DNA of 58,469 nucleotides from Dehalococcoidia bacterium. Its GTDB lineage: Bacteria > Chloroflexota > Dehalococcoidia > DSTF01 > JACRBR01. A program made the position numbers and the translations under genes. Below are positions 30,511-55,476 of this stretch, one piece after another. A model generated the notes under the pieces. The model saw nothing but the letters and a program-made list of their open reading frames with translations, did no database searches and was not told the DNA's origin. The stretch lies in NCBI GenBank assembly GCA_041494685.1, contig JBGQBE010000015.1, positions 1 through 58,469 on the forward strand, given 5' to 3'. How positions within the stretch are numbered: the stretch's first letter is position 1; each line of letters starts with the position of its first letter.

Positions 30511-31356
30511 TCAACCGGGCGTAGGCGTGGCGATGGCCGTCTCTGTCGGCGTCGGCGTCGAGGTGTCGGTTGGCGTGGGTGTGTCCGTGTCCGCAGGCAC
30601 CGGGGTAGGGGTGTCCGTAGCTGTCGGCGGCACACTCGTCGGGGTAGGTGAGTCCGTCGGCGTGGGCGGGATCGGCGTCGCGGTCGGTGTCGCGGTGGCG
30701 TCCGGCATGAAGCCGGAGCGCGAGGCAGCGCTGCCACCGTGCTTATGGCAGGACGTGCAGTCGCCGCCGACAGGGTTGTGGCCCTGGCCCTGCAGCTCCG
30801 GGCCGTTGACGTTGTTATGCGACGTCGTGGTGTGACACACGACGCAGATGCTGTCGTGGAGTCCATTGTCCATGCCGTCGTCGAACGAGCCCGAGCCCGA
30901 GGTCGCTTGGAAGTTGACGGCGAGCCCGCCGATGTCCGTCCGGATCATCTCCTTGTTGCCCGGCGCGTCCGGGTTGCCGTGGGGGTCGTGGCACTGCGCG
31001 CACGAGACGTAGAACGGCTGCTGTTCCGCAGCTACGAAGTCCATGTTCGAGTGGGCGGACACCTCCGTCGCGCCGGTGGCGTTGTGGCAGCGGGTGCAGA
31101 CGTTGCTGTCGGTCTGGCTTTCGACGAGCAGGGTATCAGCGATCCCGGTGTGTGAGCGGTGGCAGGCGCCGCAGGCCGGCTGCGCCCCGTGCGGGCTCGT
31201 CATGCCGCCCAGGGTGGCGGCCGACGGCCTTGCCGGAGATCCGCCCGGGAGGCTCGCGTAGGCGTGGCCCGTCACGGCGGCCAGCGCGACGAACGCCAGC
31301 GTCACCACCAGGGCGGTGATAGCTACGTCGCGCATCCAGCTGACCGCACCACTCAC
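30511..31356 (-). CDS. Secreted pentaheme cytochrome c with Pro/Thr tail
   Basis: Signal peptide (..AHAYA-like GHAYA); CGACH, CTRCH, CAQCH, CVVCH, CTSCH; C-terminal (PT)n. Confidence 0.9.
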   Translation of the reverse strand: MSGAVSWMRDVAITALVVTLAFVALAAVTGHAYASLPGGSPARPSAATLGGMTSPHGAQPACGACHRSHTGIADTLLVESQTDSNVCTRCHNATGATEVSAHSNMDFVAAEQQPFYVSCAQCHDPHGNPDAPGNKEMIRTDIGGLAVNFQATSGSGSFDDGMDNGLHDSICVVCHTTTSHNNVNGPELQGQGHNPVGGDCTSCHKHGGSAASRSGFMPDATATPTATPIPPTPTDSPTPTSVPPTATDTPTPVPADTDTPTPTDTSTPTPTETAIATPTPG

Positions 31357-31661
31357 GCGATCACACTCCCACGTACATGATCCGTCAATTGGGCCGCTGG
31401 ATGCACAGCCGTTCGATCAGTCTTCGGCTATGCCTTGCGGCCAGCGCGGCGCATGCGTTGCTGATGCTGGATACGGTGGGGGGTGCGACCCGTTGGGATG
31501 GGCAACGTGCAGTTGAGGGATGTGCGCGGCGATGCCTATTCAGGGAAACGAGAACGCACCCTGCTGGGTGCGGACCGCAGCGCTTCCCTGCGCTTTCACT
31601 GAAGTGCTCCGTGGAGCCGCTGGGAGCAGCCGGCTACTGCTTCCCAGGGTTCCCTCGGTTT

Positions 31662-32999
31662 CTACCCCGGCGTATTCGTTGGCACCGGCGTATCGGTCGG
31701 TAGCGGCGTCGGCGTCTTGGTTGGTGTCGCCGTCCACGTCGCAAGCGGCGTCGGCGGCACCGGCGTGCCTACCGTCCAGTGGCAGGAGATACACACTCCT
31801 CGGTTGTCGTAGAACAGGTTGGCGCTGTCCTTGGCGGGACCGTCGGGGTCTCCCGTGCCAGCCGCCGGAGTCGCCGCGGCACTGCTGCCGTGCGCGAAGT
31901 GGCACATCAGACACCCGAAGGCGTCGTACTTCAATCCACCACCTGCCCCGACGTTCGGGTCGGTACCCTCAGCGGCGTACCGCAGGGCCTGCTTCGGTGT
32001 GCCGGTGTACAGCCTGTCGACGGCGTGGCGGTAGCGCGGCACGTCGCCGTTACCATCACCCGAATCTTGCAGGCCCGGGTAGACGTACGGTGGCACCGCC
32101 GTTGCCGTGCCCGCCTTCGGCGTGTTGTACGCACTCGACGGCGTGTTCATGGAGTTCCATGACCACGAACCGGACCGCGTCAGGTAGGACTTGTGGCAGG
32201 TCGCGCAGAATGCGTTCATGCCCTTCGTCGTGTCCGGCACCGCAGTCAGTCCGGCTCCGGGGAAGATGCCCGACGTGTACCGGGCCTTGCACTTGGTACC
32301 CGCATTGTTTTCCCCGGTCCACGGGGTATTCGTACCCGCCGGCACCGTGGGATTGACAGGGCAATCCACGATGCTGCCGACGTCGAACCCGTAGGTGGGG
32401 GCGTCGTCGCTGGTAGCGAGTACCTGGTTGTTGACCCAGTTCAGCAGATCAGGGTCGTTCTGAACCCACTTGTTGGTGATGCTGGCGTCATTCAGGAGGC
32501 GGTAGTTGGTGCTGCCGTGCGGGTTGTGGCAGCTGGTGCATTCCAGCGTGCCCTGCACACCCGTCCCGTTGTCACCGCTACCATCCTGGCTTCCCCAGGC
32601 CTTCGCGATCCCGGTCCCCCCGCCCAGGCCTTCAACGGAGTGCGATGAGGTCACCGCCTTCCCGTTTGCCTGCTCGAAGCCACCGCCATTCAGCGGCTTC
32701 TGGGTAACACCGTCCCACTTCACGTTTGAGGCGCCCTTCCATTCTCCGTGGACGACATCCGTGGCGACCTTGCCGCCGTGACAACTCGTGCACAGATCGT
32801 AGACGCTATCCACTTCCAGGAGGTAAGGAGCCGTTGCCGTGTGAGGCCGGTGACAGCCACCACACGAGGACGTCGTCAGCGTGTAGCCGCCGTGCGGCCC
32901 GTTGTTCGCGGATGCCGGCGTCGCCCATGCCGTGAGTCCCACGGCCGTCAGGGCCACACCCGCTATCACCATTACTAGCAATTTGAACCGTTTCATCAT
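31662..32999 (-). CDS. Secreted hexaheme cytochrome c, OmcS-like, with Pro/Thr tail
   Basis: Strong GGAGGAGGTGAG RBS; Sec signal ending PASA; CGGCH, CTSCH, CTSCH, CATCH, CLMCH, CISCH. Confidence 0.9.
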   Translation of the reverse strand: MMKRFKLLVMVIAGVALTAVGLTAWATPASANNGPHGGYTLTTSSCGGCHRPHTATAPYLLEVDSVYDLCTSCHGGKVATDVVHGEWKGASNVKWDGVTQKPLNGGGFEQANGKAVTSSHSVEGLGGGTGIAKAWGSQDGSGDNGTGVQGTLECTSCHNPHGSTNYRLLNDASITNKWVQNDPDLLNWVNNQVLATSDDAPTYGFDVGSIVDCPVNPTVPAGTNTPWTGENNAGTKCKARYTSGIFPGAGLTAVPDTTKGMNAFCATCHKSYLTRSGSWSWNSMNTPSSAYNTPKAGTATAVPPYVYPGLQDSGDGNGDVPRYRHAVDRLYTGTPKQALRYAAEGTDPNVGAGGGLKYDAFGCLMCHFAHGSSAAATPAAGTGDPDGPAKDSANLFYDNRGVCISCHWTVGTPVPPTPLATWTATPTKTPTPLPTDTPVPTNTPG

Positions 33000-33077
33000 G
33001 CTCACCTCCTCCCAGGTTCAGAGTCTGTTCCGGGGAGTTGTCGCTCCCCGCTTAACAGTCATTAACGGGTCTGCATC

Positions 33078-34088
33078 TTATTGCGTCCATGTGTCGATGC
33101 GTCCGTTCTCGCGATTTGCGATATAGATCCGGCTACCCGATACGACTATGCCTGCCGGGTATCGGAGCTGGCCCTTCCCGAAGCCCGCTTCGCCGAACTG
33201 CGCTTTGAATTCAGGCGTATCGGCCGTCGCGTCCACCACGATGGCGCGGTGACTGACCGTATCGGTGGCGTAGATCTTCCCATCGGAGTAGGCCAGGCCG
33301 CCGGGGAGCGCGACGCCGGAGGCGCCCTCGCTGCCGAGTCGGAACAGGTAGACCCCGTCGGACCCGAAGACCTTGACGCCCGTGATGTCAGCGACCCAGA
33401 TCCGACCCTTGCCGTCGATGGCGAGATCGGAGGGGAACATGAGGTCGCCCGCAGCCGCGCCCTTCTGGCCGAACCAGCGGATGAGCGTGCCGTCGGGCCG
33501 CAGGACGTAGACGCGGTGGCGCTCGGCGCCAGGCGTATCGGTGGCCTCGCTCACGTAGATCTGGCCGTCGCTATCGATCGCCACGCCGAGCGGCGACCAT
33601 TGTCCGAATCCGGCGGGTCGAAAGGTGTCGCGGTACGTGCCGTCGGCGTTGAAGATGAGCACCTGGTTCAGCCGGCGGTCGGCCACGTACACGGAGCCGT
33701 CCGGCGCGACGGCGATGCCCATCGGCTGGCGGGTGCCCTCGGTCGTGTGGGGCGGCGCCAACTCGCCTAATGCCGCCCCCTTGGCGTCGAACACCTTGAC
33801 GGCGTACGAGCCCGCGCCCTCGGCGACGTAGAGCCGGGAACCATCCGGGCTGAGCGCCATCGCGAGCGGCCGGTCAACGGCCGCGAGCGTACGGTCGAAT
33901 GTCGGCGCGCTCTTCGTGGAGGAGCCCAGCACTTCGGGCAGTCCGGCGCGCGGGGCGCGATCCCACCGCATCAGCAGTGTGAAGAGACCGAGGGACGCGA
34001 GAAAGAGCGCCAGAAGCACCGGCGCGACCGTGTACAGGCGCTTCCGGCCAGGGTCAGGGATCTGCGGTTGCTGCTCGATGTACGTCAT
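33078..34088 (-). CDS. Membrane-anchored NHL-repeat beta-propeller protein
   Basis: N-terminal TM; repeats PMGIAVAPDGSVYVAD, PLGVAIDSDGQIYVSE, PSDLAIDGKGRIWVAD. Confidence 0.9.
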   Translation of the reverse strand: MTYIEQQPQIPDPGRKRLYTVAPVLLALFLASLGLFTLLMRWDRAPRAGLPEVLGSSTKSAPTFDRTLAAVDRPLAMALSPDGSRLYVAEGAGSYAVKVFDAKGAALGELAPPHTTEGTRQPMGIAVAPDGSVYVADRRLNQVLIFNADGTYRDTFRPAGFGQWSPLGVAIDSDGQIYVSEATDTPGAERHRVYVLRPDGTLIRWFGQKGAAAGDLMFPSDLAIDGKGRIWVADITGVKVFGSDGVYLFRLGSEGASGVALPGGLAYSDGKIYATDTVSHRAIVVDATADTPEFKAQFGEAGFGKGQLRYPAGIVVSGSRIYIANRENGRIDTWTQ

Positions 34089-35020
34089 GGCGTGTCACCC
34101 CCCTGCAACTGCTGCAGCGATTGCGCCGCGAGCAACTCGCCCGGGTTAATCGCGACCGACTTCTGGTACGCCGCGATCGCGCCGGCCTTGTCACCGGTCT
34201 TCTCGAGGGCGTAGCCGAGGGCCCACCAATAGTGGGCGCCCCCGCCCTGTTCGGCGGCTGCCTGGAGCTTCGGAAGGGCCGTGACGGCGTTGCCGTCCAG
34301 CACTTCGAGCATGGCTCCGGCGTATTGGGCCTTGGACTGGTCGCCCATGGTTGTGGCCAGCTTCTGGATCTCGGCATACGCGTCCCGGAAGTCAGGCACG
34401 AACGCGACGGACAGCTCCAGCGCCGCGGACGCGTCGTCGTTGTTGTTGTTCAAGGCGAACGTCTTCCCTAGCTCGTACAGGGTGTCCGCGTCCGATCGAT
34501 TGAGGCTCAACGCGCCGCGCAGCTCGTTGATGGCGTCGTCGTAGCGACCCTGGTCGCGCAGGACGAGGCCCAGGTAGAAGTGCGCGCCCTGCAGGCGCTT
34601 GTCCAGCGCGCCCTGCGGGTTGTTGACGTTCGCCTGGATCACCGCCTGCAGCGCGCTGCCGGCTTGGTCGAGGTTGCCCTGTTCACGGTACGCCAACCCG
34701 ATCCCGTAGAGGGCATCCTCGCGGGTGCCGTCGATGTGCAGCGCCTGCTGGTATTGCGACAGCGCTTCCGCCACGCGATGGTCGCTCATATAGGCGTCCG
34801 CCACCGCCACGCGCAATTCCGCGCTGTTCGGGTCGCCGCGAATCTGTTCCTCGAGCTTGGCGATGACGTCGCGCATCGGGTTTGGCTTGCCGTTTGAGGG
34901 CCGGGCGATGTACGAGGCGACGATAAACGCGCCGACGACCAGGGCGATGCCCACCGCCATCGGGCTGAGCCAGGCCATCCGCGGTCGGATCGGGGCCATA
35001 CGATGCGTGTCCATATTCAT
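34085..35020 (-). CDS. Membrane-anchored TPR protein
   Basis: GGAGG RBS before MNMDTH; TM helix then repeated TPR helices (ALYGIGLAY, AHFYLGLVL, LYELGKTF, LGYALEK). Confidence 0.85.
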   Translation of the reverse strand: MNMDTHRMAPIRPRMAWLSPMAVGIALVVGAFIVASYIARPSNGKPNPMRDVIAKLEEQIRGDPNSAELRVAVADAYMSDHRVAEALSQYQQALHIDGTREDALYGIGLAYREQGNLDQAGSALQAVIQANVNNPQGALDKRLQGAHFYLGLVLRDQGRYDDAINELRGALSLNRSDADTLYELGKTFALNNNNDDASAALELSVAFVPDFRDAYAEIQKLATTMGDQSKAQYAGAMLEVLDGNAVTALPKLQAAAEQGGGAHYWWALGYALEKTGDKAGAIAAYQKSVAINPGELLAAQSLQQLQGGDTP

Positions 35021-35280
35021 GGCGATCCCTCCGGACTTCGTTCCGGAGTCATCATCGCCCGGCCGCCGTCGCATTCGGCAGTATCCGGCGTGACATCTTG
35101 GGCACAGCCGATGGGGGCTCGGGTACCCCCGGCACTCACCGGCGCTTGTGAAGAACGGTACATATGGCAGGTGCATTCAGGATCAGTGCCCTTTGTGGCG
35201 GCCGCCGGAACATGGCATCCATAGGGAGGACATAGCCGCCCGGTACCCCGGGCGGAGCCCGGGAACGAAGGCAAGGGCGT

Positions 35281-37089
35281 ATGTCGATGAACCTGAACCG
35301 TCTGAAGTGGGTGGCAATTGCGATGCCGCTCGCGTTCGTGGGCTTCCTTCGCCTGACGACGGAGGGGGCGCTGGGCTCGGTCCTCGGCGCGTGGTACTCG
35401 TCGGCCATCTTCTTTGCGGCCCTTGCCCTGGGTGTCTTCGCCTTTGCCACCGTCGTGTTCGGCTGGCTCGACCGCAGTCAGAAGGTGAGCGAAGCACGCG
35501 CCAGGGAGCTGCAAGCGCTGAACGACCTCGGCAGGAAGCTCTCGGGCACCCTCGAACACGCATCCATCGTGAAGGTGGTACTGGAGACGGCGATGGGGGT
35601 GCTGGGCGCGCGCGCGGCCGGCCTGTCGCTCAATGAGGGGCAAGGACGCAGCCCCGCGTGGCACTCCATCGGTGAGGGATCCGACGACCTTGAGCGGGCC
35701 ACCAGCGCCGTATCGCCGACGCACGTGTGGCAAAACGGGTCCGCGCGCGTGGTCACCGACGATGGCGAGCCAGCGCTGCTCGTGAGCACGCCGATGGGCG
35801 GTCCGGATAGTCCGGGCGTGCTCCATGTGCTGCTTGATCCCGAGTCGGCGCACTCGACCGCCGACGTCAATTCACTGATGTACGCGCTCGCAAACCACGC
35901 CTCGGCCGCCCTTGAGCGCAGCCGGCTGTTCGAGGCGGTGCAGCGTCGTGAGCAGCATGCACGCGCGCTGTATGAAGTCGGACTCGAGATCGTGTCGTCT
36001 CAAGACCTCCAGCGGGTGCTCGGTCAGATCACCACCGATGCCTGCAGGCTCGTCCATGCACGGGCGGCGGTGCTCTGCCTGCTGAACGAATCGGATGGCC
36101 GCCTCAGCCTGGTGCAGACGTCCGGGGACAAGGCTGCCGTCCTTGCGCCGGGTGGCGACGGTTCGGGGCTCACGCCGATCGCGATCGGGCCACGCTATGG
36201 CGGTGGGCCGCCGGCCGCCTGCCCGGTGCTTGCAGAGGAACACGCAGCGCACACGATTCGCTCGCCGTTGATCGTCGGGAGCAGCGTCGTCGGCGAACTG
36301 TGCGTGATCCACGATCCCCAGCAGCGATTCACGGACGACCAGCGAGCGCTGCTCGCCGGGCTCGCCGACATGGCGGCCATCGCTATCCACAACTCACGGC
36401 TCCTGGAGCGGGAGCGTCAGGTCGCCGTGCTCGAAGAACGCGACCACCTCGCCCGCGAGATGCACGATACGCTCGCGCAGGTTCTTGGTTACCTGCACTT
36501 ACGTGCGGCTACGACGCGCAAGCGCCTGCAGGCGGGCGAGACGGACCGGGCGATAGAGGAGCTGCAGGAGATGCAGGACCTCGCCAACGAGGCCTACGTG
36601 GACGTGCGTGAGGCGATCCTCGGCCTGCGCGAGACGGTGGCGCCTGCGGGCGGCATCGTGGGCAGCCTGCGACAGTACCTTCAGAAGTTCGGTCGGCAGT
36701 CCGGTATCGAGGCGGTACTGCGGGTCCCGGGCACCGTGGCGGCGACGCTGCCGCCCGACGCCGAGATACAGCTCTTACGGGTGGTGCAGGAGGCGCTGAC
36801 CAACGTCCGCAAGCATGCCGACGCGGCGCGGGCGACCGTCTGCCTCGAGAATGCGGGCGATTGCCTGCGCATATCCATCGAAGACAACGGCCGGGGATTC
36901 GATTCGTCGCGGGTCGACCGGGCGGAGGGACGGAGCTTCGGGCTTCGATCCATGAAGGAGCGCGTCGAACGCGCGGGCGGGCGCTTCAGTGTGGACTCGA
37001 CGCCGGGGAAGGGTACGCGGATCACCGTGCTGTTGCCGCTAGAGCAGGGAGGAGGACTACGTGTCGCGTATGAAGATTCTGCTGGTTGA
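35281..37089 (+). CDS. GAF-domain sensor histidine kinase (HisKA_3, NarX-like)
   Basis: 2 TM, two GAF-like segments, EERDHLAREMHDTLAQ, QEALTNVRKHA, DNGRGF, GLRSMKER. Confidence 0.92.
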   Translation: MSMNLNRLKWVAIAMPLAFVGFLRLTTEGALGSVLGAWYSSAIFFAALALGVFAFATVVFGWLDRSQKVSEARARELQALNDLGRKLSGTLEHASIVKVVLETAMGVLGARAAGLSLNEGQGRSPAWHSIGEGSDDLERATSAVSPTHVWQNGSARVVTDDGEPALLVSTPMGGPDSPGVLHVLLDPESAHSTADVNSLMYALANHASAALERSRLFEAVQRREQHARALYEVGLEIVSSQDLQRVLGQITTDACRLVHARAAVLCLLNESDGRLSLVQTSGDKAAVLAPGGDGSGLTPIAIGPRYGGGPPAACPVLAEEHAAHTIRSPLIVGSSVVGELCVIHDPQQRFTDDQRALLAGLADMAAIAIHNSRLLERERQVAVLEERDHLAREMHDTLAQVLGYLHLRAATTRKRLQAGETDRAIEELQEMQDLANEAYVDVREAILGLRETVAPAGGIVGSLRQYLQKFGRQSGIEAVLRVPGTVAATLPPDAEIQLLRVVQEALTNVRKHADAARATVCLENAGDCLRISIEDNGRGFDSSRVDRAEGRSFGLRSMKERVERAGGRFSVDSTPGKGTRITVLLPLEQGGGLRVAYEDSAG

Positions 37090-37726
37090 CGACCAACTCT
37101 TGTTCCGCAAAGGGCTGCGAGCGTTGCTCGAGACTGAGGAAGATATGGAGGTCGTGACCGAGGCCTCGAACGGCGAGGAAGCGCTCAACAAGGTGAAGGC
37201 GTACCGCCCCGACGTCGTCTTAATGGACATCCACATGCCCGTCTGCGACGGGATCGAGGGCACACGCCTGATCAAGGCGGAACATCCGGATGTGAAGGTG
37301 GTGATCCTCACGGTGTCCGAGGATGATGACGACCTCTTCGAAGCGATCAAGGCGGGCGCCGGGGGCTACCTGCTGAAGAACCTTCGCCCCGAAGACCTTA
37401 CGCAGATGCTGCGGAGCGTCATGGCAAACGAGGCGCCGATATCGCCGTCCATCGCGTCGAAGCTGCTCGGCGAGTTCCGGCGCCATCCCCACGAGGATCG
37501 CGGACAGCCCAGCGGGCCGGAGCTGACCGCGCGAGAGCGCGAGGTGCTCCAGTTCGTGGCCGAGGGGCTGAGCAACGCGGAGATCGGGCTCAGGCTCAGC
37601 GTGGTGGAAGGCACGGTGAAGAACCACCTGCACAACCTGCTCGAGAAGCTGCATCTCCAAAACCGCGTCCAGGCGGCCGCTTACGGCATCCGCTCAGGCA
37701 TGGTGTCGCTCCCTCCCCAGGACTGA
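37061..37726 (+). CDS. NarL/LuxR family response regulator
   Basis: LLVDDQ, DVVLMDIHMP, GYLLK, LTAREREVL, TVKNHLHNLLEKL. Confidence 0.95.
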   Translation: MSRMKILLVDDQLLFRKGLRALLETEEDMEVVTEASNGEEALNKVKAYRPDVVLMDIHMPVCDGIEGTRLIKAEHPDVKVVILTVSEDDDDLFEAIKAGAGGYLLKNLRPEDLTQMLRSVMANEAPISPSIASKLLGEFRRHPHEDRGQPSGPELTAREREVLQFVAEGLSNAEIGLRLSVVEGTVKNHLHNLLEKLHLQNRVQAAAYGIRSGMVSLPPQD

Positions 37727-37971
37727 TCCAGCCGTCATTGCCGTGCCCCCTTGCTCGACATGTGCGCCGGGCGAGGGGGCACCTGCGTGTGCGGCGCTAC
37801 TGTGCCCGGTGATACACCGGTCTCTACCTCTGGGCGTACCGATGCCCATCTCCATTGATCGAAGGCCACTGGCCGTATCTATCGCGCCGCCCGTGTGAAC
37901 CGATCCGAGGGAGCAGACAATGGCTTTGGGCATGGCACGCTGGATAGGGCGCGCCGCCACGGAGATGTTCC

Positions 37972-38370
37972 ATGCGTGGGCGTCACGTCGTTGTCCTGTT
38001 CCAGCATCGTCTGTTCGGCGAGGCGATCGCGCGGGCGCTCGGTGAGAACGACCAGCTGCAGGTGACGGCGCTCCCGGCCGATGCAGTGTCGCCAGAAGCG
38101 CTCAAGGCCATCCACCCCGATGCGATCATCCTCGAGGAAGAACCGGTGGTGGGCGATATCAAGAACTGCCTGCTGGATGTGGCACCGGTGCTCACGGTCG
38201 TCGTCGGGACGGAAGCGAACACCGCGGAAGTGTACGAGCGCCACGAGGTCATCCACGCCACGGCAACGGAGATCACGGCGCGGATCATGGCCGGATCGCG
38301 GCTCTCGGGGTCGAAGCGCACAGCCAGCGCCAGGGGCCCGTCGCACGTTCCAAAGGAGGATGAGCGTTGA
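37972..38370 (+). CDS. Hypothetical protein, degenerate receiver-like fold
   Basis: GGAGA RBS; HRLFGEAIARAL, HPDAIILE; TTGA overlap with next gene. Confidence 0.6.
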   Translation: MRGRHVVVLFQHRLFGEAIARALGENDQLQVTALPADAVSPEALKAIHPDAIILEEEPVVGDIKNCLLDVAPVLTVVVGTEANTAEVYERHEVIHATATEITARIMAGSRLSGSKRTASARGPSHVPKEDER

Positions 38371-38945
38371 GCCATCTCGCGCGGGCCGGTGCGCTGCTTC
38401 TCCTGGTGGTCGGTGCGGCCCTGACGGTGCGCGCGGTGACCGGCCAGATCGAGATTCCGCTCATCGGCCTCGTGAGAGCGGACAACGCGGCTCACTGGGC
38501 ATCCCTGCAGCCTCGCCTTGGCAGTGCGACCCAGTGCGCGAAGTGCCACTCAGACGTTGACCTGGCGTGGTCCAAGTCCGCGCACGCGGCGCAGACCTGC
38601 GAAGCCTGTCATGGCGCCGGCGACCGGCATATAGCCTACGGCGCGATCATGGATCCCGCGAAAGAGCTGTGCACGACCTGCCACGAGAAGATCCCGGGCC
38701 GGCCGGCCAACTTCCCGCAGATGGTGAAGCTGGATCACTACCCGCTCCAGGCCTGTACGTCCTGTCACGACCCGCACGCCCCGGCAGCGACGTTCCCGGA
38801 GATCCCGCATAACGTCGAGGGCCGGCAGGACTGCCTCGCGTGTCATGGCGTGAAGGGCATCGCCGATATCCCGCCGAACCACGCTGACCGGCCGGTCGAA
38901 CTGTGCCTGGGCTGCCACAAACAGGGAGGCACGAACAAGCGATGA
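38367..38945 (+). CDS. Membrane-anchored hexaheme cytochrome c
   Basis: GGAGGA RBS, TTG start, N-terminal TM; CAKCH, CEACH, CTTCH, CTSCH, CLACH, CLGCH. Confidence 0.9.
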   Translation: MSHLARAGALLLLVVGAALTVRAVTGQIEIPLIGLVRADNAAHWASLQPRLGSATQCAKCHSDVDLAWSKSAHAAQTCEACHGAGDRHIAYGAIMDPAKELCTTCHEKIPGRPANFPQMVKLDHYPLQACTSCHDPHAPAATFPEIPHNVEGRQDCLACHGVKGIADIPPNHADRPVELCLGCHKQGGTNKR

Positions 38946-44120: not shown

Positions 44121-44130
44121 GAGCGCGTGA

Positions 44131-44412: not shown

Positions 44413-44415
44413 CAA

Positions 44416-44661
44416 ATGGCGGAGGTGGTGTTCGGCGGCATGCCCGCCTGGCTGTTGGAGGCCTACCTCGTCGAACTCGGAGGCAGACGCGCGGCGGCAG
44501 GCGGAACGGTGGAGGGTGACGGTTGGTTGGCGACGCTGGATTCCTCGCGAAGTAATTCAAGTGGGGTCGCCATAGCGCGCGTGACGGTCACGATCGAGGG
44601 CGAGCGCGCGCCGATGGTGCTGGCGGCGCTCCGCAAGAAAGCGCAGCGCGGCGGCGGTTAG
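44416..44661 (+). CDS. Small protein, DUF1952-like
   Basis: GGMPAWLLEAYLVELGG...VEGDGW...KAQRGGG; follows aor-moaD. Confidence 0.65.
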   Translation: MAEVVFGGMPAWLLEAYLVELGGRRAAAGGTVEGDGWLATLDSSRSNSSGVAIARVTVTIEGERAPMVLAALRKKAQRGGG

Positions 44662-47731: not shown

Positions 47732-48446
47732 GCGGTCCTCCGCCCCAGTCGAAGTACTGCGGCATCTGTACCAGCGTGTTCGTCAGCATCAGCACGCCGA
47801 TACCGGCGACGAGCACCCCGCTCACAACCGGCACGCCGACGCGGAGCAGGCGCGCCCGCTTCAGCGGCTGTGTGATGGCGTCGACGGCCACGGCGGCAGC
47901 GATGAACGGCACGCCGAGTCCGAGGGAGTACGACACCAGTAGCAGCGTCCCGCGGGCGGATTCGCCATCGAACGTCGCGAGACCGATGATCGCTCCGAGC
48001 ACCGGGCCGATGCACGGCGTCCAGCCAGCCGCGAAGATGAGCCCCAGCGAGAACGAGCGGACGAAGCCGGAGCGCTGACCGAGCTTGCCGCTGAAAACGT
48101 GGTCCTGGTTCAGGAAGCCTAGGTTGATCACCCCGGCCAGGTGGAATCCCATGAAGACGAGCACCGCGCCACCGGCCTGGCGCAGGTAGTGCGCATTGTC
48201 GCGCAGCGCATATCCGACCAATCCGATCGAGGCCCAGAATGCGACGAAGACGAGGGTGAAGCCCAAGACGAAGACGGTGGCGTGCAGCGCGGGCCAGAGT
48301 CGCCCGTGCGCGATGGCGCGGCCTTCCACCGAGACGTCGGCCATGTGGGCGAGGTAGACGGGCACCAGCGGCAACACGCATGGCGAGACGAACGAGAGCA
48401 CTCCCGCCGCGAAAGCCACCAGGATCGTAACGTTCTGGCCATCCAC
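47724..48446 (-). CDS. ccdA: Cytochrome c biogenesis protein CcdA
   Basis: AGVLSFVSPCVLPLVPVY and GWTPCIGPVLG. Confidence 0.93.
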   Translation of the reverse strand: MDGQNVTILVAFAAGVLSFVSPCVLPLVPVYLAHMADVSVEGRAIAHGRLWPALHATVFVLGFTLVFVAFWASIGLVGYALRDNAHYLRQAGGAVLVFMGFHLAGVINLGFLNQDHVFSGKLGQRSGFVRSFSLGLIFAAGWTPCIGPVLGAIIGLATFDGESARGTLLLVSYSLGLGVPFIAAAVAVDAITQPLKRARLLRVGVPVVSGVLVAGIGVLMLTNTLVQMPQYFDWGGGPLG

Positions 48447-48462: not shown

Positions 48463-49404
48463 TTACGGCGCCGGGACGACGGGCGTCAGCGTCGCTACGG
48501 ACGGAACCGCGGCAGGCGTCCCCGTGAGCTGCGCCTTCAGCCCGTCGACGTGCACCTTCGCTGTCTGCCCCAATTGTGACTGCGGGTCCAGTCGGACCAC
48601 GGTCTCCCACTCGTTCACGGCACCGGCGAGATCACGCGGCTCCGCGTTCGCGTATACGAACCCCATGTTGTAGTGCGCCTGGACGTCGTTCGCATCGATA
48701 GTCAGGACGCGCTGCCACCACTCCTTGGCCTTGTCAGGCCGGCCGAGGTTGAAGTTCGCTGTGCCGATGTCGGTCAGAGCGTTCTTGTTGTTCGGATCCA
48801 GATCGACGAGCTTGGTCAGCGATGAGATCGAGTCTTCGAAGCGTGCGGCCTCGAAGTACATTTCGCCCAGCTCATACAGCGCGTCTTTGTCCGATGGGTT
48901 CTGGTTGAGCGCTGCCTGGAGTTGGTCGACGCGGGCCTGGTCTATCACGGGCGTCCCCGTTGTGGCCGGGAGCGATGCGGCGCCACCCGCTCCGCCCGTC
49001 ATGGCGCGCACGCCGAAGATGGCGAACACCGCCAGGACGCCGATCGCGACGCCTATGCCGAGCCGGGCGGCCTGTTGCGGCACTCTCAGCACGAACATGC
49101 CGGGGTCGGAGGCTGCGGCGCCACTGCTCCGGGGCGCAGCCTGCCGGAGCGCCTTCGGATTGGCCGCGGCAAGAAGCGCGGGGGCGCTGACGGCCTCGCC
49201 TTCCTCGTCGCAGGCGTCCGACTCAAAGTCTTCGGCGGAGGCCATGTACGCGTCGATTAGTTCGGCGTGCCTGCGCGCCCATCCGCGGAAGTTCGCCGGA
49301 ATCCCGTCCGACCCGAGGAACGCGACGAGTTCGTTCGACCAGCGCTCGAGCTCGTCCGGGGACAGGCCATCCGGGACACCTGCGGGGCGTTGTTGCGCCA
49401 GCAT
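48463..49404 (-). CDS. Membrane-anchored TPR protein
   Basis: Central TM then TPRs (ALYELGEMYF, ALTDIGTANF, AHYNMGFVY). Confidence 0.8.
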   Translation of the reverse strand: MLAQQRPAGVPDGLSPDELERWSNELVAFLGSDGIPANFRGWARRHAELIDAYMASAEDFESDACDEEGEAVSAPALLAAANPKALRQAAPRSSGAAASDPGMFVLRVPQQAARLGIGVAIGVLAVFAIFGVRAMTGGAGGAASLPATTGTPVIDQARVDQLQAALNQNPSDKDALYELGEMYFEAARFEDSISSLTKLVDLDPNNKNALTDIGTANFNLGRPDKAKEWWQRVLTIDANDVQAHYNMGFVYANAEPRDLAGAVNEWETVVRLDPQSQLGQTAKVHVDGLKAQLTGTPAAVPSVATLTPVVPAP

Positions 49405-49973
49405 TACTCCTCCATTCCCGGCGGCAGCGGCGTGTTCGTGCCGGGGCCGACCTTCGAGTACTTTGCGTCGATGAACTTGCGTGTGGCCGCCAGCGACTGT
49501 CCCTGGGACTGCATCGTCTTGACGTCGAGGACGATGGACACGCAGACGTCGCAGCCGGAGCCGTGGTCGTCGTACGTGATGCCGCTCAGGGTCTGCTGCT
49601 TGACGAAGCAGTCGCGGGCGTTGCGGTGCCCGGAGTGGCCGCCGCAGCCGCAGTAGCAGGGAATGTACGCCAGTTCGGCGCCGTGACTGGCCGCGAACTC
49701 GTACGCCTCACGCACGCGCGGCGTCGCCGCGCTGATGAATTGAGGCAGAGATGGCGGACGGGACGCCGCAGGTGAGGCGGGAGCCGATGCCGCCGTCGGA
49801 CGCTCACCGCTGCCCCCTGGTGGGAAAAGCCCTCCGAACCAGAGGCCGGCGCCGATGATGGCGACCGCGCCCGCGAGCACCGGGAGGATGCCGCGGATAC
49901 GCGAACCGGACGGCGCCGTGTGCGCCGTGGTTCGGGACGGTTCCAGGCCATGTCGCCGGCTACGACTGTTCAT
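49404..49973 (-). CDS. PCYCGC-motif protein
   Basis: TM anchor; IPCYCGCG...GHRNARDCF...DDHGSGCDVC; TNTPLPP terminus. Confidence 0.85.
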   Translation of the reverse strand: MNSRSRRHGLEPSRTTAHTAPSGSRIRGILPVLAGAVAIIGAGLWFGGLFPPGGSGERPTAASAPASPAASRPPSLPQFISAATPRVREAYEFAASHGAELAYIPCYCGCGGHSGHRNARDCFVKQQTLSGITYDDHGSGCDVCVSIVLDVKTMQSQGQSLAATRKFIDAKYSKVGPGTNTPLPPGMEE

Positions 49974-50198: not shown

Positions 50199-51299
50199 AT
50201 GGACGAGTCTGGAGACGACGGACGCTCGTTCGGAGGTTCGACGCGGCTGGAGCTGTCGCGCTTCGACCAGGTGTTGCTGGCCGAATTGCAGGATCGGCTC
50301 CCGGTGGCTGTCGCCCCGTTCCGCCGCGTGGCGGAGCGCCTCTGCGCCGACGAGCGCGACGTGGTTGCGCGCGTCGTGGCCCTCCACGACCTGGGCGTCC
50401 TGCGGCACATCAGCCCGATCTTCGACGCGGAGGCGCTCGGGTATTCGAGTTGCCTGGTCGCGATGTGTGTCCCCGAGGAGCGGCTCGCGGCGGCGGTGGA
50501 CGTCGTGAACGCGCACCCCGGCGTGAGCCACAACTATTTGCGTGCGCACGCCTTCAACCTGTGGTTCACCATCGCCGTTCCGCCCGCCTCGGACCTGCAG
50601 GCGCACGTCGAGGCGTTACGCGAGCGAGCGGGCGCCGAATCGGCGCGATCGCTGCCGGCGTTGCGCCGGTTCAAGATCGGGGTCTCGCTGGACATCACGG
50701 GCGAGCGGGGCATGGAGCACCGGTCGGCACCGCGGCACACCGGCGGACGGGACAAGGCGGCCGCCGGGCGAGAGCCGCTGACGCAGCGCGATATCGACGT
50801 GATCCGCGCGGTCCAGGGCGACCTGCCCTTGCGGGCCGATCCGTTCGCTGACGCCGCGCGGGCGCTCGGGATGACGGAGGCAGCTCTGGTCGAGCATCTA
50901 CTCGATCTGCGACGGCGCGGATGTCTGCGTCGGATCGCCGGCATCCTACGCCATCGCGACGCAGGGTTCGCGGCGAACGGAATGGCTGTCTGGGATGTCC
51001 CGGCGGCGCGCATCCGTGACGTGGGCGAGGCGATGGCCGGCTACACCGCGATCAGCCATTGCTACGAGCGGCCGCGCTACCACGACTGGCCGTACAATCT
51101 GTTCACGATGGTACACGCGCACAGCACGGCGGAGTGCGACGCGTTCGTCGAGGAGCTCGCGCGGGCGCACGCCCTACGGGAGCACGCGGTGCTCTACAGC
51201 ACGACGGAGTACAAGAAGATCCGTGCCGTCTACTTCACGCCCGATGTCGCCGAGTGGGAACGCACATTCGTCCGGGGGACGGCTACACAGACTGACTAG
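50199..51299 (+). CDS. Fused siroheme decarboxylase AhbA/AhbB (two Lrp/AsnC-like modules)
   Basis: HPGVSHNYLR..FNLWFT and SHCYERP..WPYNLFTMVH, LYSTTEYKK. Confidence 0.9.
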   Translation: MDESGDDGRSFGGSTRLELSRFDQVLLAELQDRLPVAVAPFRRVAERLCADERDVVARVVALHDLGVLRHISPIFDAEALGYSSCLVAMCVPEERLAAAVDVVNAHPGVSHNYLRAHAFNLWFTIAVPPASDLQAHVEALRERAGAESARSLPALRRFKIGVSLDITGERGMEHRSAPRHTGGRDKAAAGREPLTQRDIDVIRAVQGDLPLRADPFADAARALGMTEAALVEHLLDLRRRGCLRRIAGILRHRDAGFAANGMAVWDVPAARIRDVGEAMAGYTAISHCYERPRYHDWPYNLFTMVHAHSTAECDAFVEELARAHALREHAVLYSTTEYKKIRAVYFTPDVAEWERTFVRGTATQTD

Positions 51300-51428: not shown

Positions 51429-52562
51429 CTACGATGCGGCCGGCGGCTGGTAGATGCAGCAGGGCTCCTCCGCCAGGTGGTTGCCCGACGTTGCCCAGGC
51501 GCGCGCCCGGGAGCCGCCGCAGACGTCCTTGAAGTCGCAGCGACCGCACTTGCCCTGCAACTGCGCGGGGTCGCGCAGCGACCGGAAGAGCGGCGCATCG
51601 CGGTAGATCGAGGCGAGCGACGCCGTGCGGACGTTGCCGGCGCAGATCTGCAGGAAGCCACTGGGGTAGACGTCGCCGACGTGGGAGATGAAGCAGAAGC
51701 CCTTGCCGTCGTTCACGCCCTTCTCGACCGGCGCTTTGCCCTGGCGGAACGCGTACCCGGCGCCGGTCAACTCGAACTCCTTCGGCTGCTCGCCTGACGC
51801 CGCCTTCGCGCGACGGCGCTGGATCAGCACGCGCCGGTAGTGCTGGGCGGCCGTGGTGCGAACGCGGAAGGGGACTCGCTCGGACAGGTCGGCCAACCAC
51901 TGCAGGACTTCCTCGTGCTCCTCCGGTGTCAGCATGGCGTCCAGCTGGGCGCGGCCGGTCGGGACCAGGAAGAACACGTTCCAGACGGTCGCATTAATCT
52001 GTTGCACGACCTCGGCGATAGCCGGCAGGTCGGCGATGTTGTGGCGGCTGACCGTGGTACCGATCTGCAGCGGCAGCCCGACGTCGCGCACATCAGCGAC
52101 GATCTCGCGCGTGCGCTGGTACGCGCCGCTGACGCGCCGGAAGGCGTCGTGCACGTCCGGCCCGGAGCCGTCGAGGCTGACGTGCACCATATCGACGCCT
52201 ACGTCGCGCACGCGCTCGATGGCGGCGCGCGTGACGAGCTTCGTCGCACTCGGCGAGAAGCCGACCTTGAGCCCGCGCTCCACGGCGCCACCCAGGATGT
52301 CGAACACGTCGCGGCGCATCATCGGGTCGCCGCCGGTGACCACGAGGATCGGCTTGCCCACGTCGACGATCTGGTCGAGCACGCCGAATGCCTCGGCGGT
52401 CGTCAACTCGTGGGCGTCGCGCTGGGGGATCGCCTCGGCGCGGCAATGGATGCATGAGAGCGCGCAGGCCCGGGTGATCTCCCAGGCCAGCGTGAACGGC
52501 GTGTGGTCAAAATCGACGTCAAGGTACGGCGGCCGTGCCGGTGCGGTCGATGCAGTCTCCAT
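51429..52562 (-). CDS. ahbD: Radical SAM/SPASM protein, AhbD-like heme synthase
   Basis: WEITRACALSCIHCRAEA, TGGDP, LVPTGR, GKCGRCDFKDVCGGSRARA; heme-pathway context. Confidence 0.75.
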   Translation of the reverse strand: METASTAPARPPYLDVDFDHTPFTLAWEITRACALSCIHCRAEAIPQRDAHELTTAEAFGVLDQIVDVGKPILVVTGGDPMMRRDVFDILGGAVERGLKVGFSPSATKLVTRAAIERVRDVGVDMVHVSLDGSGPDVHDAFRRVSGAYQRTREIVADVRDVGLPLQIGTTVSRHNIADLPAIAEVVQQINATVWNVFFLVPTGRAQLDAMLTPEEHEEVLQWLADLSERVPFRVRTTAAQHYRRVLIQRRRAKAASGEQPKEFELTGAGYAFRQGKAPVEKGVNDGKGFCFISHVGDVYPSGFLQICAGNVRTASLASIYRDAPLFRSLRDPAQLQGKCGRCDFKDVCGGSRARAWATSGNHLAEEPCCIYQPPAAS

Positions 52563-53761
52563 CACACCCCCAGTGCCTGCGGCGCGCGGATCTCGTCGTC
52601 CGTCAGGTAGCAGGCGGGATCGGACCCCCAGAGGTCGCCCGTGGCCGCTTCGGCGCGGACACGCAGGTTGCCGTTGCAGATATCGAAGAAGCCGCAGCTC
52701 GCGCAGCGCCCGTTGATCAGGTCGCGCCGCTGCCGCAGCCCGCTGAGCAGCGGATTCGACAGATCGCTCCAGATCGTGCTGAACGGCCGCTCGCGCACGT
52801 TGCCGAGCGACATGTGCCACGAGAACTGGTCGGGGTGCACTTCGCCGAGGTAGTCGATGCAGCCGACGCCGAGGCCGGAGCTGTTGCCGCCGTTCCAGCG
52901 GAGCAGCTTCAGCACTTCTTCGGCGCGCTCCGGCTGGTCGCGCTTGACGCGCATGTAGAGGTAGGCCGAGTCGGCGTGGTTGTCGACCGTCAGTACCTCT
53001 TTCTCGATACCGCGCCGGTGCCACTCCAGCACCTTGTCGCAGAGCAGGTCGAGAGCGACGCGCGTCTCGTCCGAATCGAGCGCGTCGGCGGCGATCTTCT
53101 TGCCGCGGCCGCTGTACGCCAGGTGGTACATGCAGAAGCGCGGCACATCTTCTTCCTCAAGCAGGTTCAGGATCTCGGGGAGATGATGCTGGTTGCGGCG
53201 GGTGATCGTGAAGCGCACGCCGACCCGGACGCCCGCTTCCCGGCAGGCGCGGATGCCGGCCAGCGCCGCGTCGAAGGCGCCGGGCTTGCCGCGGAACTTG
53301 TCGTGGATGTCCGCCCGCCCGTCCAGGCTGATGCCGGCGTACGAGAAGCCCTGCGACTGTATCTCCCGTGCGACCTCCGGCGTGATCAGCGTGCCATTGG
53401 TCGAAAGGACGGCCCGCATCCCCCGGTCGCGCGCATGTCGTGACAGCGTGAACAGGTCCGCCCGCCGCAGAGGTTCGCCGCCAGAGAACAGGACAACGGG
53501 CACGCCGAAGTCGGCCAGGTCATCGATGACCCGCAGCCCCTCCTCGGTCGTCAATTCGCCTTCGTACGCGCGGTCCGTGGCGGCGGCGTAGCAGTGCACG
53601 CAGTGGAGGTTGCAGCTGCGCGTCACGTTCCAGACGACCACGGGCCGCTTGTCCTCGGAGAAATGGAGAAGGTGAGATGGCAGATGAGCAGATTTGCGCT
53701 CGTATCGCAGGGCATCGCCGGAGGTTACGGTTCCACAAAGCAGGCGTGAAAGACTAAGCAC
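52562..53761 (-). CDS. ahbC: Radical SAM/SPASM Fe-coproporphyrin synthase AhbC
   Basis: DALRY, KRPVVVWNVTRSCNLHCVHCY, YHLAYSGRG, TVDNHAD, WNGGNSSG, HPDQF, DPACYLTDDEI. Confidence 0.88.
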   Translation of the reverse strand: MLSLSRLLCGTVTSGDALRYERKSAHLPSHLLHFSEDKRPVVVWNVTRSCNLHCVHCYAAATDRAYEGELTTEEGLRVIDDLADFGVPVVLFSGGEPLRRADLFTLSRHARDRGMRAVLSTNGTLITPEVAREIQSQGFSYAGISLDGRADIHDKFRGKPGAFDAALAGIRACREAGVRVGVRFTITRRNQHHLPEILNLLEEEDVPRFCMYHLAYSGRGKKIAADALDSDETRVALDLLCDKVLEWHRRGIEKEVLTVDNHADSAYLYMRVKRDQPERAEEVLKLLRWNGGNSSGLGVGCIDYLGEVHPDQFSWHMSLGNVRERPFSTIWSDLSNPLLSGLRQRRDLINGRCASCGFFDICNGNLRVRAEAATGDLWGSDPACYLTDDEIRAPQALGV

Positions 53762-54210
53762 TGATGCACCTCCCGCTGGTTCCGCCCCGCCGCGAACGTT
53801 CTCGCGCGCGAGATAGGAGCTTGTCCAAGCCGTTGACTAACTGTCGCATCGTGAACAGGCCCCGCCAAGGTGCCGATCGTCCCGCAGGGGCCCGAATCTG
53901 GCCGATAGATGCGTAGCTTTGCGTATAGCCGGGGGCATAGAGCTGACCATATCTCATCTGCATCGGCAGCGTGGCTTACGGGACTGATCGATGTCTCGGG
54001 CGTCTACCGATGAGTTGATGTGAGGGGGTCGTGTCTGCCGCTACGATCTCCACAACCGGCGAGGAGTTCGCCCATCATGGAAGACAGCCACGCGCTACTC
54101 CTGAGAGATTCGGCGGCGATGCGGCGCCTCCCGCGGGGCTGCCACGCGCGATCGCGGGTGTGCAGATGACAACGCAGAGAGTCCCCCCGGCCGGCGGCAC
54201 GCACAGACCG

Positions 54211-55476
54211 ATGCGCATCGCGCTCCTCGGGACGAACAACAAGATGTCGCCGCTGGACCTCCGGGAGCGGCTCGCGTTCTCGCCACACGAACTCGGGCCC
54301 GCCCTCGAAGCGATGAAGGCATACGTGCCCGAGGGTACGATCCTTTCGACGTGCCACCGCGTCGAGCTGTACGCGGCCGCGCCGAGCCTGCGCGGCGTGC
54401 GGGCAGCGCTCAAGCGCTTCTGGAGCGAGCAGCGGCACGTTTCCCGGCGGGGCCTCGATGAGCACCTCTACTACCTGGAAGACGAGCAGGCGGTAGCCCA
54501 CCTGTTCTCCGTGGCGAGCGGGATGGATTCCGCGATCATCGGCGAGCCGCAGATTCTCGGTCAGGTGCGAGGGGCGCTCGATCTGAGCCTCGAGCATCAC
54601 GCGACGGGGAGCGTGCTCTCCGGCCTCGTGCGGCAGGCGCTGACGGTCGGCAAGCGGATCCGCACGGAGACCGGCATCAGCCGCAACGCGGCGTCGATCA
54701 GCTCCGCGGCCGTCGAACTGGCGCGGGACACGTTCGGTGATCTGCGCACATCCCGCGTGCTGCTCATCGGCACCGGAAAGATGGGCGAACTGGCGGCGAG
54801 AAACCTGCTGAGCAAGGGCGTCGCCGGGTTCTCCGTGGCGGGCCGCACGCCAGCGCGGACGCGCCAACTGGCGCTCGAATGCGGCAGCGCCGTCGCGCTG
54901 ACCGAGCTCGAGCAGGCGCTCCCGCAGTGCGACATCGTCATCAGTTGCACCAGCGCTCCCCACCACGTCATCAGCAGGGAGATGGTGGAGCAGGCCATGC
55001 GAGAGCGCTCGGGCCAGCCGCTCTTCCTGATCGACATTGCCGTCCCGCGCGACGTCGAGCCGTCCGCAGGCGACGTCGAAGGCGTCCGCCTCTTCAACAT
55101 CGACGACCTGGAAGCTACCGTCAGGGCGAACGTGCGCGAGCGCTGGGCTGAGGCACCGAAGGCCTCGGCTATCATCGACGAATCGGTGGCGGCGTTCGAT
55201 TCATGGCTGGTCGCCCGCCGCGCCGTTCCGACGATCGCGGCGCTGCGCAAGCGCGCCGAGTCGATCCGGCAGACGGAGTTGGCACGCACCTCCGCCGTGC
55301 TCGCCCGCCTCTCCGAGGCCGACCGGCGGCGCATCGAAGCCCTCACGCTGGCCCTCCAGAAGAAGCTGCTGCACCAGTCGATCGCCCTGCTTCGTGCAGA
55401 GGCGGTGGCCGGCAACGGCCGCGCCACCGACCGCGCCGTCCGCCAGCTTTTCTCTCTCGACTCGACGCGCGCCTGA
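54211..55476 (+). CDS. hemA: Glutamyl-tRNA reductase
   Basis: RERLAF, LSTCHRVELY, HLFSVASGMDS, GEPQILGQV, IGTGKMG, DIAVPRDVE; start could be 54166. Confidence 0.93.
   Translation: MRIALLGTNNKMSPLDLRERLAFSPHELGPALEAMKAYVPEGTILSTCHRVELYAAAPSLRGVRAALKRFWSEQRHVSRRGLDEHLYYLEDEQAVAHLFSVASGMDSAIIGEPQILGQVRGALDLSLEHHATGSVLSGLVRQALTVGKRIRTETGISRNAASISSAAVELARDTFGDLRTSRVLLIGTGKMGELAARNLLSKGVAGFSVAGRTPARTRQLALECGSAVALTELEQALPQCDIVISCTSAPHHVISREMVEQAMRERSGQPLFLIDIAVPRDVEPSAGDVEGVRLFNIDDLEATVRANVRERWAEAPKASAIIDESVAAFDSWLVARRAVPTIAALRKRAESIRQTELARTSAVLARLSEADRRRIEALTLALQKKLLHQSIALLRAEAVAGNGRATDRAVRQLFSLDSTRA

Follow-up and report, generated by a model that had tools for sequence, protein, structure and literature searches.

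Mineral respiration by thick-walled bacteria that lack an outer membrane is known from a handful of Firmicutes, and for the Chloroflexota, which are abundant in sediments, an iron or manganese role has mostly been guessed from heme counts. A 58,469-nucleotide stretch of DNA from a Dehalococcoidia bacterium (GenBank JBGQBE010000015.1; hereafter the window) raises the question in a concrete form: does the 25-kb gene cluster at positions 30511–55476 encode a route that carries electrons out of such a cell, and which of its genes belong to that route? The initial annotation, made from the DNA letters alone, had read the cluster as a self-contained and undescribed extracellular electron transfer system of a probable monoderm, provided with its own cofactor supply. 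We think it probable that the region encodes an extracytoplasmic multiheme conduit of a monoderm member of the Chloroflexota, most likely for extracellular electron transfer.

The window is contig C15 of a 3.29-Mb genome (G000; 87 contigs, 97.6% complete). Genes were called by third-position G+C and annotated by Pfam and NCBIfam scans. Every gene named in the initial annotation was found where it had been placed, as judged by Pfam, NCBIfam and the translations; the list was complete as named, but it had missed an NHL part fused to NrfD, a small gene (orf132) and a second TPR gene. The 17 CxxCH motifs were recovered in the translations as 6+5+6 in three cytochromes, and an 18th belongs to an extension at the 5′ end of the TPR frame that is probably not translated. 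Across the genome, just five coding-like open reading frames reach a count of at least five CxxCH motifs, three of them in the cluster; this concentration of cytochromes is far beyond chance. Because G+C is even across the whole window (0.65–0.70), the “island” is a gene cluster and not a compositionally foreign insert. The records that hold relatives of the window proteins bear the labels Dehalococcoidia, Chloroflexota or Chloroflexi. Near-identical DNA was found in sediment metagenome runs, and no RNA run was among those listed.

We noted that the gene cyt6 (31662–33005, minus strand) encodes a secreted hexaheme cytochrome with CxxCH motifs at residues 48, 72, 156, 267, 365 and 405 of a 447-residue frame, a signal peptide ending in ASA before NNGPHGGY, and a 35-residue Pro/Thr-rich tail. 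The initial annotation had guessed that this protein is “OmcS-like”, and the guess held in profile searches. Indeed, OmcS (6ef8_A) is the top PDB match of family profile A3 (83 sequences; E=1.9e-23, 86.7 bits), covering residues 8–406 of 407 with all six CxxCH motifs collinear. It is also the top PDB match of the narrower profile A1 (59 family members; E=2.1e-10, heme motifs 2–5), while the N-terminal profile A2 returned only generic paired-CxxCH matches (MtrA 6r2q; OmcE 7tfs, 5.4e-6; OmcS, 0.016). Judged by these profiles, cyt6 is a true relative of OmcS. A conserved GPHGGY motif opens the mature hexahemes of the family, directly behind the signal peptide. Six further histidines outside the heme motifs are conserved in the family, four of them invariant (H36, H53, H120 and H370) and two present in at least 90% of members (H161 and H325). 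They would be enough for bis-histidine ligation of all six hemes, although which histidine pairs with which heme is not readable from sequence. H53, the invariant histidine of a CxxCHxxH motif, aligns in profile A3 with position 16 of OmcS, the residue that OmcS gives to the heme of the neighbouring subunit. Inter-subunit heme ligation by a histidine is described for OmcS (PMC7911101).

The family is large. A library clustered at 50% identity holds 4452 of its representatives when the threshold is E≤0.001, 1763 when it is E≤1e-10 and 655 when it is E≤1e-30. One of its members, P0074 (Chloroflexi, 716 residues), carries a precomputed heme-b-type EB_dh domain (PF09459) ahead of the hexaheme region, which the profile matches at residues 371–713. 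The fourth-best PDB match of profile A3 (E=3.4e-7) is chain N of 9yuq, a 218-residue “putative multiheme cytochrome c” in a 16-chain deposit, which may be another cytochrome filament.

Downstream of cyt6, the gene cyt5 (30511–31356, minus strand) encodes a secreted pentaheme cytochrome c with five CxxCH motifs, an N-terminal hydrophobic segment and an 80-residue Pro/Thr-rich C-terminal tail. Its likeness to the hexaheme family is limited to an N-terminal CxxCHRxH...CxxCH di-heme unit (hhalign probability 97%). The Pro/Thr-rich tails of both proteins (encoded at 30511–30750 and 31662–31770) are seen only in the Dehalococcoidia-type clade, that is, in the window and in loci L018–L023, where they are 15–31 residues long in hexahemes and 75–120 in pentahemes. 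In most other lineages the hexaheme stops two to four residues past the last heme motif. The tails may be tethers or glycosylated linkers.

Upstream of cyt6, on the same strand, are the genes for a signal-anchored NHL-repeat beta-propeller (33078–34088; Pfam NHL, E=4.7e-27) and for a membrane-anchored TPR protein, TPR1 (34085–35176; E=3.6e-24 for Pfam TPR_2, and a weak match of the CcmH/CycH TPR type). The start of the NHL gene overlaps the TPR1 stop by 4 bases. TPR1 has one transmembrane segment, at residues 73–91 of its frame, and its true start is probably near 35020. Facing these genes, on the plus strand, are a sensor histidine kinase (35281–37089), in which Pfam finds GAF, HisKA_3 and HATPase domains in addition to a transmembrane segment, and a NarL/LuxR-type response regulator (37061–37726; Response_reg, E=1.3e-31, plus GerE). 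They are followed by orf132 (37972–38370), which encodes a conserved small cytoplasmic protein with no Pfam or NCBIfam match and whose nearest Atlas clusters hold only unnamed Chloroflexota proteins.

The plus-strand genes that follow encode a membrane module. The first, mcyt6 (38367–38945), specifies a small cytochrome c with six CxxCH motifs in 192 residues and a hydrophobic segment at residues 7–25 (anchor or signal). It overlaps its neighbours, starting within the stop of orf132 and lying directly upstream of the NrfC gene. Its PDB match is weak (OcwA 6i5b, E=8.8e-4), and its Pfam matches are to Paired_CXXCH_1 and cytochrome c7/c3, with none to NapC/NirT. The second gene (38903–39754) encodes an NrfC-type ferredoxin with four Cys clusters (Fer4_11, E=3.2e-27) and the motif RRRAFLK, exported by the twin-arginine translocation (Tat) route; its closest PDB chain is PsrB (2vpw_B, E=3.5e-43), and its best NCBIfam matches, TtrB, DsrO and NrfC, all fall under their cut-offs. 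The third (39751–42135) encodes a 794-residue fusion, NrfD::NHL, in which an NrfD domain at residues 12–331 (Pfam, E=2.3e-39; 136 bits against a cut-off of 25.8) is followed by more transmembrane segments, a last anchor at 433–451 and an NHL propeller predicted to face outward; hydropathy suggests about ten transmembrane segments. The anchor at 433–451 is preceded by PDPKRKR and the single transmembrane segment of the free NHL protein (residues 21–39) by PDPGRKR, so that PDPxRKR plus anchor is common to both. Such NrfD::NHL fusions form 24 clusters, 22 near full-length and 2 shorter or partial, in a set of 5.8 billion proteins. As the initial annotation had remarked, no catalytic subunit accompanies the hexaheme, NrfC and NrfD; there is none in the window or at the five other fused-NrfD loci (L018, L019 and L021–L023).

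The same genome has a second, split module on contig C1 (102560–108203; locus L089) that reads NrfC, NrfD, a 547-residue NHL protein, a 224-residue hexaheme and a 344-residue NHL protein. Its NrfC and NrfD are 34% and 23% identical to those of the window, and the NHL protein of this cluster is closest to the propeller fused to NrfD. A third cytochrome locus, on contig C9 (52584–60798; L090), encodes a HisKA_3 kinase, a NarL regulator, a 737-residue seven-heme protein with a NapC/NirT-like stretch, a 789-residue NHL protein and another beta-propeller. Since NHL proteins are found at the C1 and C9 cytochrome loci as well, NHL propellers are steady partners of multiheme cytochromes in this genome.

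Are these genes kept together elsewhere? We searched a panel of 40 relatives, 24 of them from the same family as G000, and a class-wide sample of 301 genomes (both counts include G021, one genome, without a hexaheme). A wider scan with one genome per species gave 335 confirmed relatives, the best 80 matches of which make up 71 loci; neighbours at these loci were counted by searching their reading frames with the window proteins. A synteny search, proposed with the initial annotation as a check on it, found the genes of the 11.6-kb core (30511–42135; called the 11-gene core) co-conserved in G002, G019 and G008. In all three, order and orientation are kept, with NrfD::NHL, NrfC, small hexaheme, orf132, regulator and kinase facing TPR, NHL and hexaheme, and orf132 again lies between the regulator and mcyt6. 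Core products are 54–88% identical, the kinase orthologues 53–71% and the regulators 72–88%. One or two extra hexahemes and a pentaheme gene follow the hexaheme in G002 and G019; in G008 the pentaheme homologue is on another contig.

These three genomes, 3 of the 24 from the same family, are also the ones in the panel with full-length orthologues of the hexaheme, and a distant one occurs in G035. Weak “hexaheme” matches in G007, G024 and G025 cover the Pro/Thr-rich tail only and were discarded as spurious. In the class-wide sample the hexaheme family (E≤1e-10) is found in 8 of 301 genomes. The hexaheme is an accessory, patchy trait.

Where the hexaheme does occur, its upstream genes are largely fixed. 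TPR, NHL and hexaheme genes are contiguous on one strand at 48 of the 71 loci, and at 9 further loci other genes are inserted between the TPR–NHL pair and the hexaheme, which brings the triad to 57 of 71. Contig ends cut 11 loci, two of which still show NHL followed by hexaheme, and three loci have room upstream but no TPR or NHL match. An NHL gene lies directly upstream of the hexaheme at 49 loci. The triad loci are labelled as Chloroflexota classes, Coriobacteriia/Actinomycetota and metagenome-assembled genomes (MAGs) of Eubacteriales (Bacillota-labelled). The other members of the core are less constant neighbours: the kinase–regulator pair is present at 23 of the 71 loci, an extra hexaheme at 34, a cyt5 homologue after the hexaheme gene at 25, NrfC together with NrfD at 9, and the fused NrfD::NHL at 5. 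One of the loci, L072 from an Anaerolineales MAG, repeats the divergent layout of the window, with genes for a nine-heme cytochrome, NrfC and NrfD (not fused) opposite those for kinase, regulator, TPR, NHL and hexaheme.

The view of the host as a probable monoderm fits the absence of any match to Omp85/BamA (PF01103) in G000, in a search that was positive in seven control diderms and that did not extend to lipopolysaccharide genes. NrfD/PsrC proteins bind quinones and carry no cofactors, and NrfC/PsrB proteins hold four [4Fe-4S] clusters on the outer face of the membrane. From such family knowledge, together with the observed gene identities, OmcS homology, synteny, phyletic patterns and lack of Omp85, we propose the following mechanism. 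Menaquinol would be oxidized at the NrfD membrane subunit, and the Tat-exported NrfC would then relay electrons over its four [4Fe-4S] clusters to the small hexaheme of the same operon. The electrons would move onward to the secreted pentaheme and the OmcS-family hexaheme, through or beyond the envelope, and so to an insoluble or external acceptor. The NHL propellers, both free and NrfD-fused, and the TPR protein may act as non-redox assembly or docking factors for the cytochromes, because an NHL gene adjoins omcS and NHL and TPR genes occur in Gram-positive cytochrome clusters; the NrfD::NHL fusion would hold the cytochrome chain on the quinol dehydrogenase. Expression would be controlled by the GAF kinase and the NarL regulator, and the adjacent System II operon would mature the extra c-type cytochromes.

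Three known systems come close to this arrangement. Cyt6 resembles OmcS of Geobacter sulfurreducens (GSU2504) in having six hemes, about 400 residues and collinear CxxCH motifs, and the loci resemble each other too: at omcS there are an NHL gene (GSU2505), a two-component pair (GSU2506/2507; regulator and kinase) and tandem hexaheme paralogues (PMC9070056, PMC10599522, PMC12977616). The NHL protein encoded beside omcS has been suggested to be necessary for OmcS assembly or expression (PMC9070056, PMC10599522). In contrast to Geobacter, the host here lacks Omp85 and a TPR gene precedes the NHL gene, and the homology to OmcS emerges by profile only. In the Gram-positive-type Thermincola potens and T. 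ferriacetica, the ImdcA–PdcA–CwcA–OcwA pathway runs from a quinol-oxidizing cytochrome over intermediates to the OmcS-like hexaheme CwcA (PMC7911101). CwcA has been modelled on OmcS and proposed to be a wire that spans the cell wall (PMC7911101); its likeness to cyt6 is one of description and not of sequence comparison. The input here is NrfC/NrfD with a small hexaheme instead of the decaheme ImdcA, and the cluster has no OcwA-type nonaheme. NHL and TPR genes are also found in Gram-positive cytochrome clusters of Dethiobacter (PMC10376724).

The third precedent, Cbc4 of Geobacter (CbcS–CbcT–CbcU, GSU0068–0070), likewise joins an anchored multiheme cytochrome, a protein with four [4Fe-4S] clusters and a cofactor-free membrane subunit, with no catalytic subunit (10.1101/2025.04.14.648717). 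It is viewed as a quinol:cytochrome c oxidoreductase (10.1101/2025.04.14.648717), a role that is itself unproven. However, CbcS is a NapC/NirT-family tetraheme, whereas mcyt6 has six hemes and lacks a NapC/NirT match, and NrfD here is fused to NHL; by this comparison the module has a Cbc4-like build without being a Cbc4 orthologue. With CwcA, Cbc4 and the NHL gene beside omcS as close precedents, calling the system undescribed overstated the case. In the searched full-text literature, which leaves most subscription journals outside, we found no description of an NrfD–NHL fusion or of a Chloroflexota TPR–NHL–OmcS-type cassette. The cluster consists of known kinds of parts in a new arrangement. 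What is new is the hexaheme–NrfC–NrfD::NHL input module, with its second, split copy in the same genome; the near-constant cassette of TPR, NHL and OmcS-type hexaheme across three phyla labelled as Gram-positive-type; and a second System II operon that tracks the cassette in this order. The cluster thus offers a concrete and testable wiring diagram, tied by homology to OmcS, the best understood cytochrome nanowire. The TPR–NHL pair, the NHL gene beside omcS and the NrfD::NHL fusion point to assembly factors of cytochrome wires, which are testable in culturable relatives (Ardenticatena, Thermincola).

Several points weigh against this reading. The case is made from the sequence of an uncultured organism. 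G000, G002, G019 and G008 may form one clade, and their shared synteny and second System II could reflect one inheritance event. With single sequences, PDB searches with all three cytochromes, cyt6 included, gave no match to OmcS. An AlphaFold2 model of cyt6 on alignment A1 was poor (predicted local distance difference test, pLDDT, of 59.2), and Foldseek found nothing for it in the PDB at E≤0.001; its best row was 6ef8_A, at a meaningless E=5.5 and template modelling (TM) score of 0.16. The OmcS match, moreover, carries no information on polymerization, and among the OmcS paralogues of Geobacter wire formation is known for OmcS alone (PMC12977616). In the membrane module, the NrfD part scores far under all of the NCBIfam equivalog cut-offs and matches no solved chain in the PDB by sequence, its quinone chemistry being assumed from the family, and mcyt6 may be either membrane-anchored or cleaved. 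Finally, the direction of electron flow is unreadable from sequence, and a heme-copper oxidase in the genome makes inward flow to oxygen possible. For two copies of the mature hexaheme, modelled as a complex with the hemes left out, the score was 0.01, which is no evidence on binding either way.

The constancy of the triad allows a broader, tentative interpretation, which we put forward as possible but rather doubtful. TPR, NHL and OmcS-family hexaheme may form a general, modular “cell-wall wire” cassette of outer-membrane-less bacteria, in which the anchored NHL protein would be a docking or polymerization platform and lineages would plug in different inputs. These would be a multiheme–NrfC–NrfD module in Chloroflexota and a [NiFe] hydrogenase between the NHL and cytochrome genes in MAGs labelled Coriobacteriia, Actinomycetota and Eubacteriales. 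In the clade of the window, where the platform would be the part fused to NrfD, the quinol dehydrogenase itself would be the site of wire nucleation.

The hydrogenase-type loci are a separate observation. Locus L068 (1704–13677) encodes a multiheme cytochrome (of 14–20 hemes across loci of this type), TPR, NHL, the small and large subunits of a [NiFe] hydrogenase and an OmcS-family hexaheme, in this order. The same order is seen, by gene sizes, in L052, L074 and L084 (Pfam was checked on L068 only), and these loci are labelled Coriobacteriia, Actinomycetota and Eubacteriales. The arrangement suggests that hydrogen oxidation feeds straight into this same cassette.

How far, then, does the system extend beyond its core? 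The rest of the cluster includes, on the minus strand, the System II cytochrome c maturation genes ResA/CcsB/ResB/CcdA (44739–48446; Pfam, NCBIfam), TPR2, the TPR gene missed at first (48463–49404), and a gene for a PCYCGC protein (49404–49973). All four System II components are in one operon; ResB (PF05140, E=1.5e-70), DsbD_TM and CcsB (TIGR03144; 218 bits against a cut-off of 187.6) match well, and the ResA match is under its cut-off. Because G000 also has a ResB-like gene on contig C5 and a CcsA gene on C22, the operon of the window is a second copy. Beyond it are a fused AhbAB gene (50199–51299, plus strand), AhbD and AhbC (51429–53761, minus strand) and HemA (54031–55476, plus strand; 417 bits), all identified by NCBIfam. 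The Ahb genes are those of the siroheme-dependent route to heme b. AhbA (233 bits) and AhbB (239 bits) score above the cut-offs; AhbC (595 against 650) and AhbD (354 against 500) are best matches under their equivalog cut-offs, with NirJ-type alternatives lower.

It is a distinct possibility, though one that we consider the less probable, that the system is the core at 30511–42135 and nothing more, and that System II, Ahb and HemA are nearby by shared ancestry or as heme housekeeping. Across the wider family their linkage is indeed rare, contrary to what the initial annotation would suggest: within 10 kb of the hexaheme, System II is found at 2 and Ahb/HemA at 4 of the 71 loci, and in G008 System II is on another contig. 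The ResB type of the window (E≤1e-70) is present in 16 of the 301 class-wide genomes, namely 4 of the 8 that carry the hexaheme and 12 of the 293 that do not (the genomes are related, and we give no statistic), and in G028 it is the sole ResB match with this query. Against a core-only system, however, the genome retains two ResB-like and two CcsA genes, and the second System II follows the hexaheme in this order. While 34 of the 40 relatives have some ResB match, in most of them only a divergent ResB-like protein (35–42% identity, residues 30–321), full-length orthologues of the window type (48–77% identity) occur only in G002, G019, G008, G028 and G035, and all of these except G028 also carry the hexaheme.

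Gene order points the same way. PCYCGC, TPR2, CcdA, ResB, CcsB and ResA keep their order in G019, G008 and G035. In G019, HemA, AhbC, AhbD, AhbAB, a pentaheme gene and this same series from PCYCGC to ResA lie 5–25 kb from the core on the same contig, so that the island is conserved there apart from aor. In G008 the pentaheme homologue flanks System II, and in three further, distant Chloroflexota lineages (G035, L058 and L080) System II and HemA border on the triad or on cytochrome genes that go with it, System II being either adjacent to the triad or no more than some 5 kb from the cluster. We also noted that the PCYCGC-motif and TPR proteins are the fixed first genes of this System II type (window, G019, G008, G035, L058 and L080).

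The heme genes stand differently. An Ahb set adjoins the cluster also in G019 and L018, and AhbC is found in 18 of 41 genomes (G000 counted). Ahb is the only heme route found in G000, where the search for a ferrochelatase was negative although the genome encodes a heme-copper oxidase; Ahb with HemA is, therefore, the general heme route of the cell, linked to the cluster but not a private supply. The claim of an own heme supply thus falls, and of the “self-contained” system one part stands, in that the second System II tracks the hexaheme, but not the rest, since Ahb is general and aor-moaD is not co-conserved.

The same hardware might work inward, with Fe(II), reduced humics, a mineral or a syntrophic partner as electron donors to the surface cytochromes; this we consider unlikely. 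Delivery would be through the hexaheme and NrfCD either to the quinone pool, which needs reverse, energy-dependent flow, or to an oxidase. A heme-copper oxidase is at hand in the genome, NrfD-type complexes such as Qrc act as quinone reductases (PMC13059093), and the Actinomycetota-type triads that enclose a [NiFe] hydrogenase show that the hexaheme can adjoin an electron donor module. However, high-potential donors must push electrons uphill to reduce quinones, the cluster showed no Cyc2-type marker or any other known marker of iron oxidases (none was searched for), and the papers cited here treat the nearest analogues (Thermincola, Geobacter Cbc4 and OmcS) as routes outward (PMC7911101; 10.1101/2025.04.14.648717).

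It is more improbable that the cytochromes are NrfCD-fed extracytoplasmic reductases or detoxifiers of soluble oxyanions, metalloids, or nitrogen or sulfur compounds. Relatives of NrfCD and PsrBC classically serve periplasmic reductases, and PsrB is the closest solved relative of the NrfC protein; in addition, a gene for an ArsR-family regulator adjoins the pentaheme gene. Yet this regulator gene is not kept beside the module in G002, G019 or G008, and the Pfam and NCBIfam scans matched no nitrite, sulfite or tetrathionate reductase family. The whole-length homology to OmcS and the conserved bis-histidine candidates for all six hemes, which leave no obvious open catalytic heme, also argue against this reading.

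Finally, the idea that the cytochromes accept electrons from three ethylbenzene-dehydrogenase (Ebd)-like molybdoenzymes encoded at 14248–30112 was rejected as very improbable and close to refuted: on the strand of the pentaheme gene, the third alpha gene stops 400 bases away from it, but a twin-arginine motif is missing from the first 90 residues of all three alpha subunits, and no molybdopterin (EbdA-like) subunit gene occurs at any of the 71 loci or at the loci of G002, G019 and G008. That nearest gene, for an EbdA-like molybdopterin subunit (27293–30112, minus strand, as cyt5), lies past the ArsR gene downstream of cyt5. The whole set consists of three alpha subunits of the type II dimethyl sulfoxide reductase kind and one beta subunit, among thiolase, acyl-coenzyme A dehydrogenase and coenzyme A-transferase genes. 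Since they lack a twin-arginine motif, the alpha subunits are probably cytoplasmic, and the enzymes resemble hydroxylases that act in the cytoplasm on a lipid or steroid-like side chain.

The conduit that we propose probably also excludes the three genes that follow NrfD::NHL on the plus strand (42321–44661): aor (42321–44120; AFOR_N and AFOR_C domains), a MoaD/SAMP-like gene (44131–44412; ThiS in Pfam) and, as the third gene, one for a DUF1952 protein. The initial annotation had counted aor-moaD as part of the system; these genes, however, have no homologue at the 71 loci or in the otherwise conserved island of G019. The aor frame contains an in-frame TAG at 43707–43709. A selenocysteine codon or a pseudogene was considered and rejected, as the codon is TAG and reads GAG in contigs of all four public runs. 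Since position 43707 is G in these contigs (4/4), so that the codon is GAG (Glu), the stop arose as an error in assembly and the AOR gene is intact.

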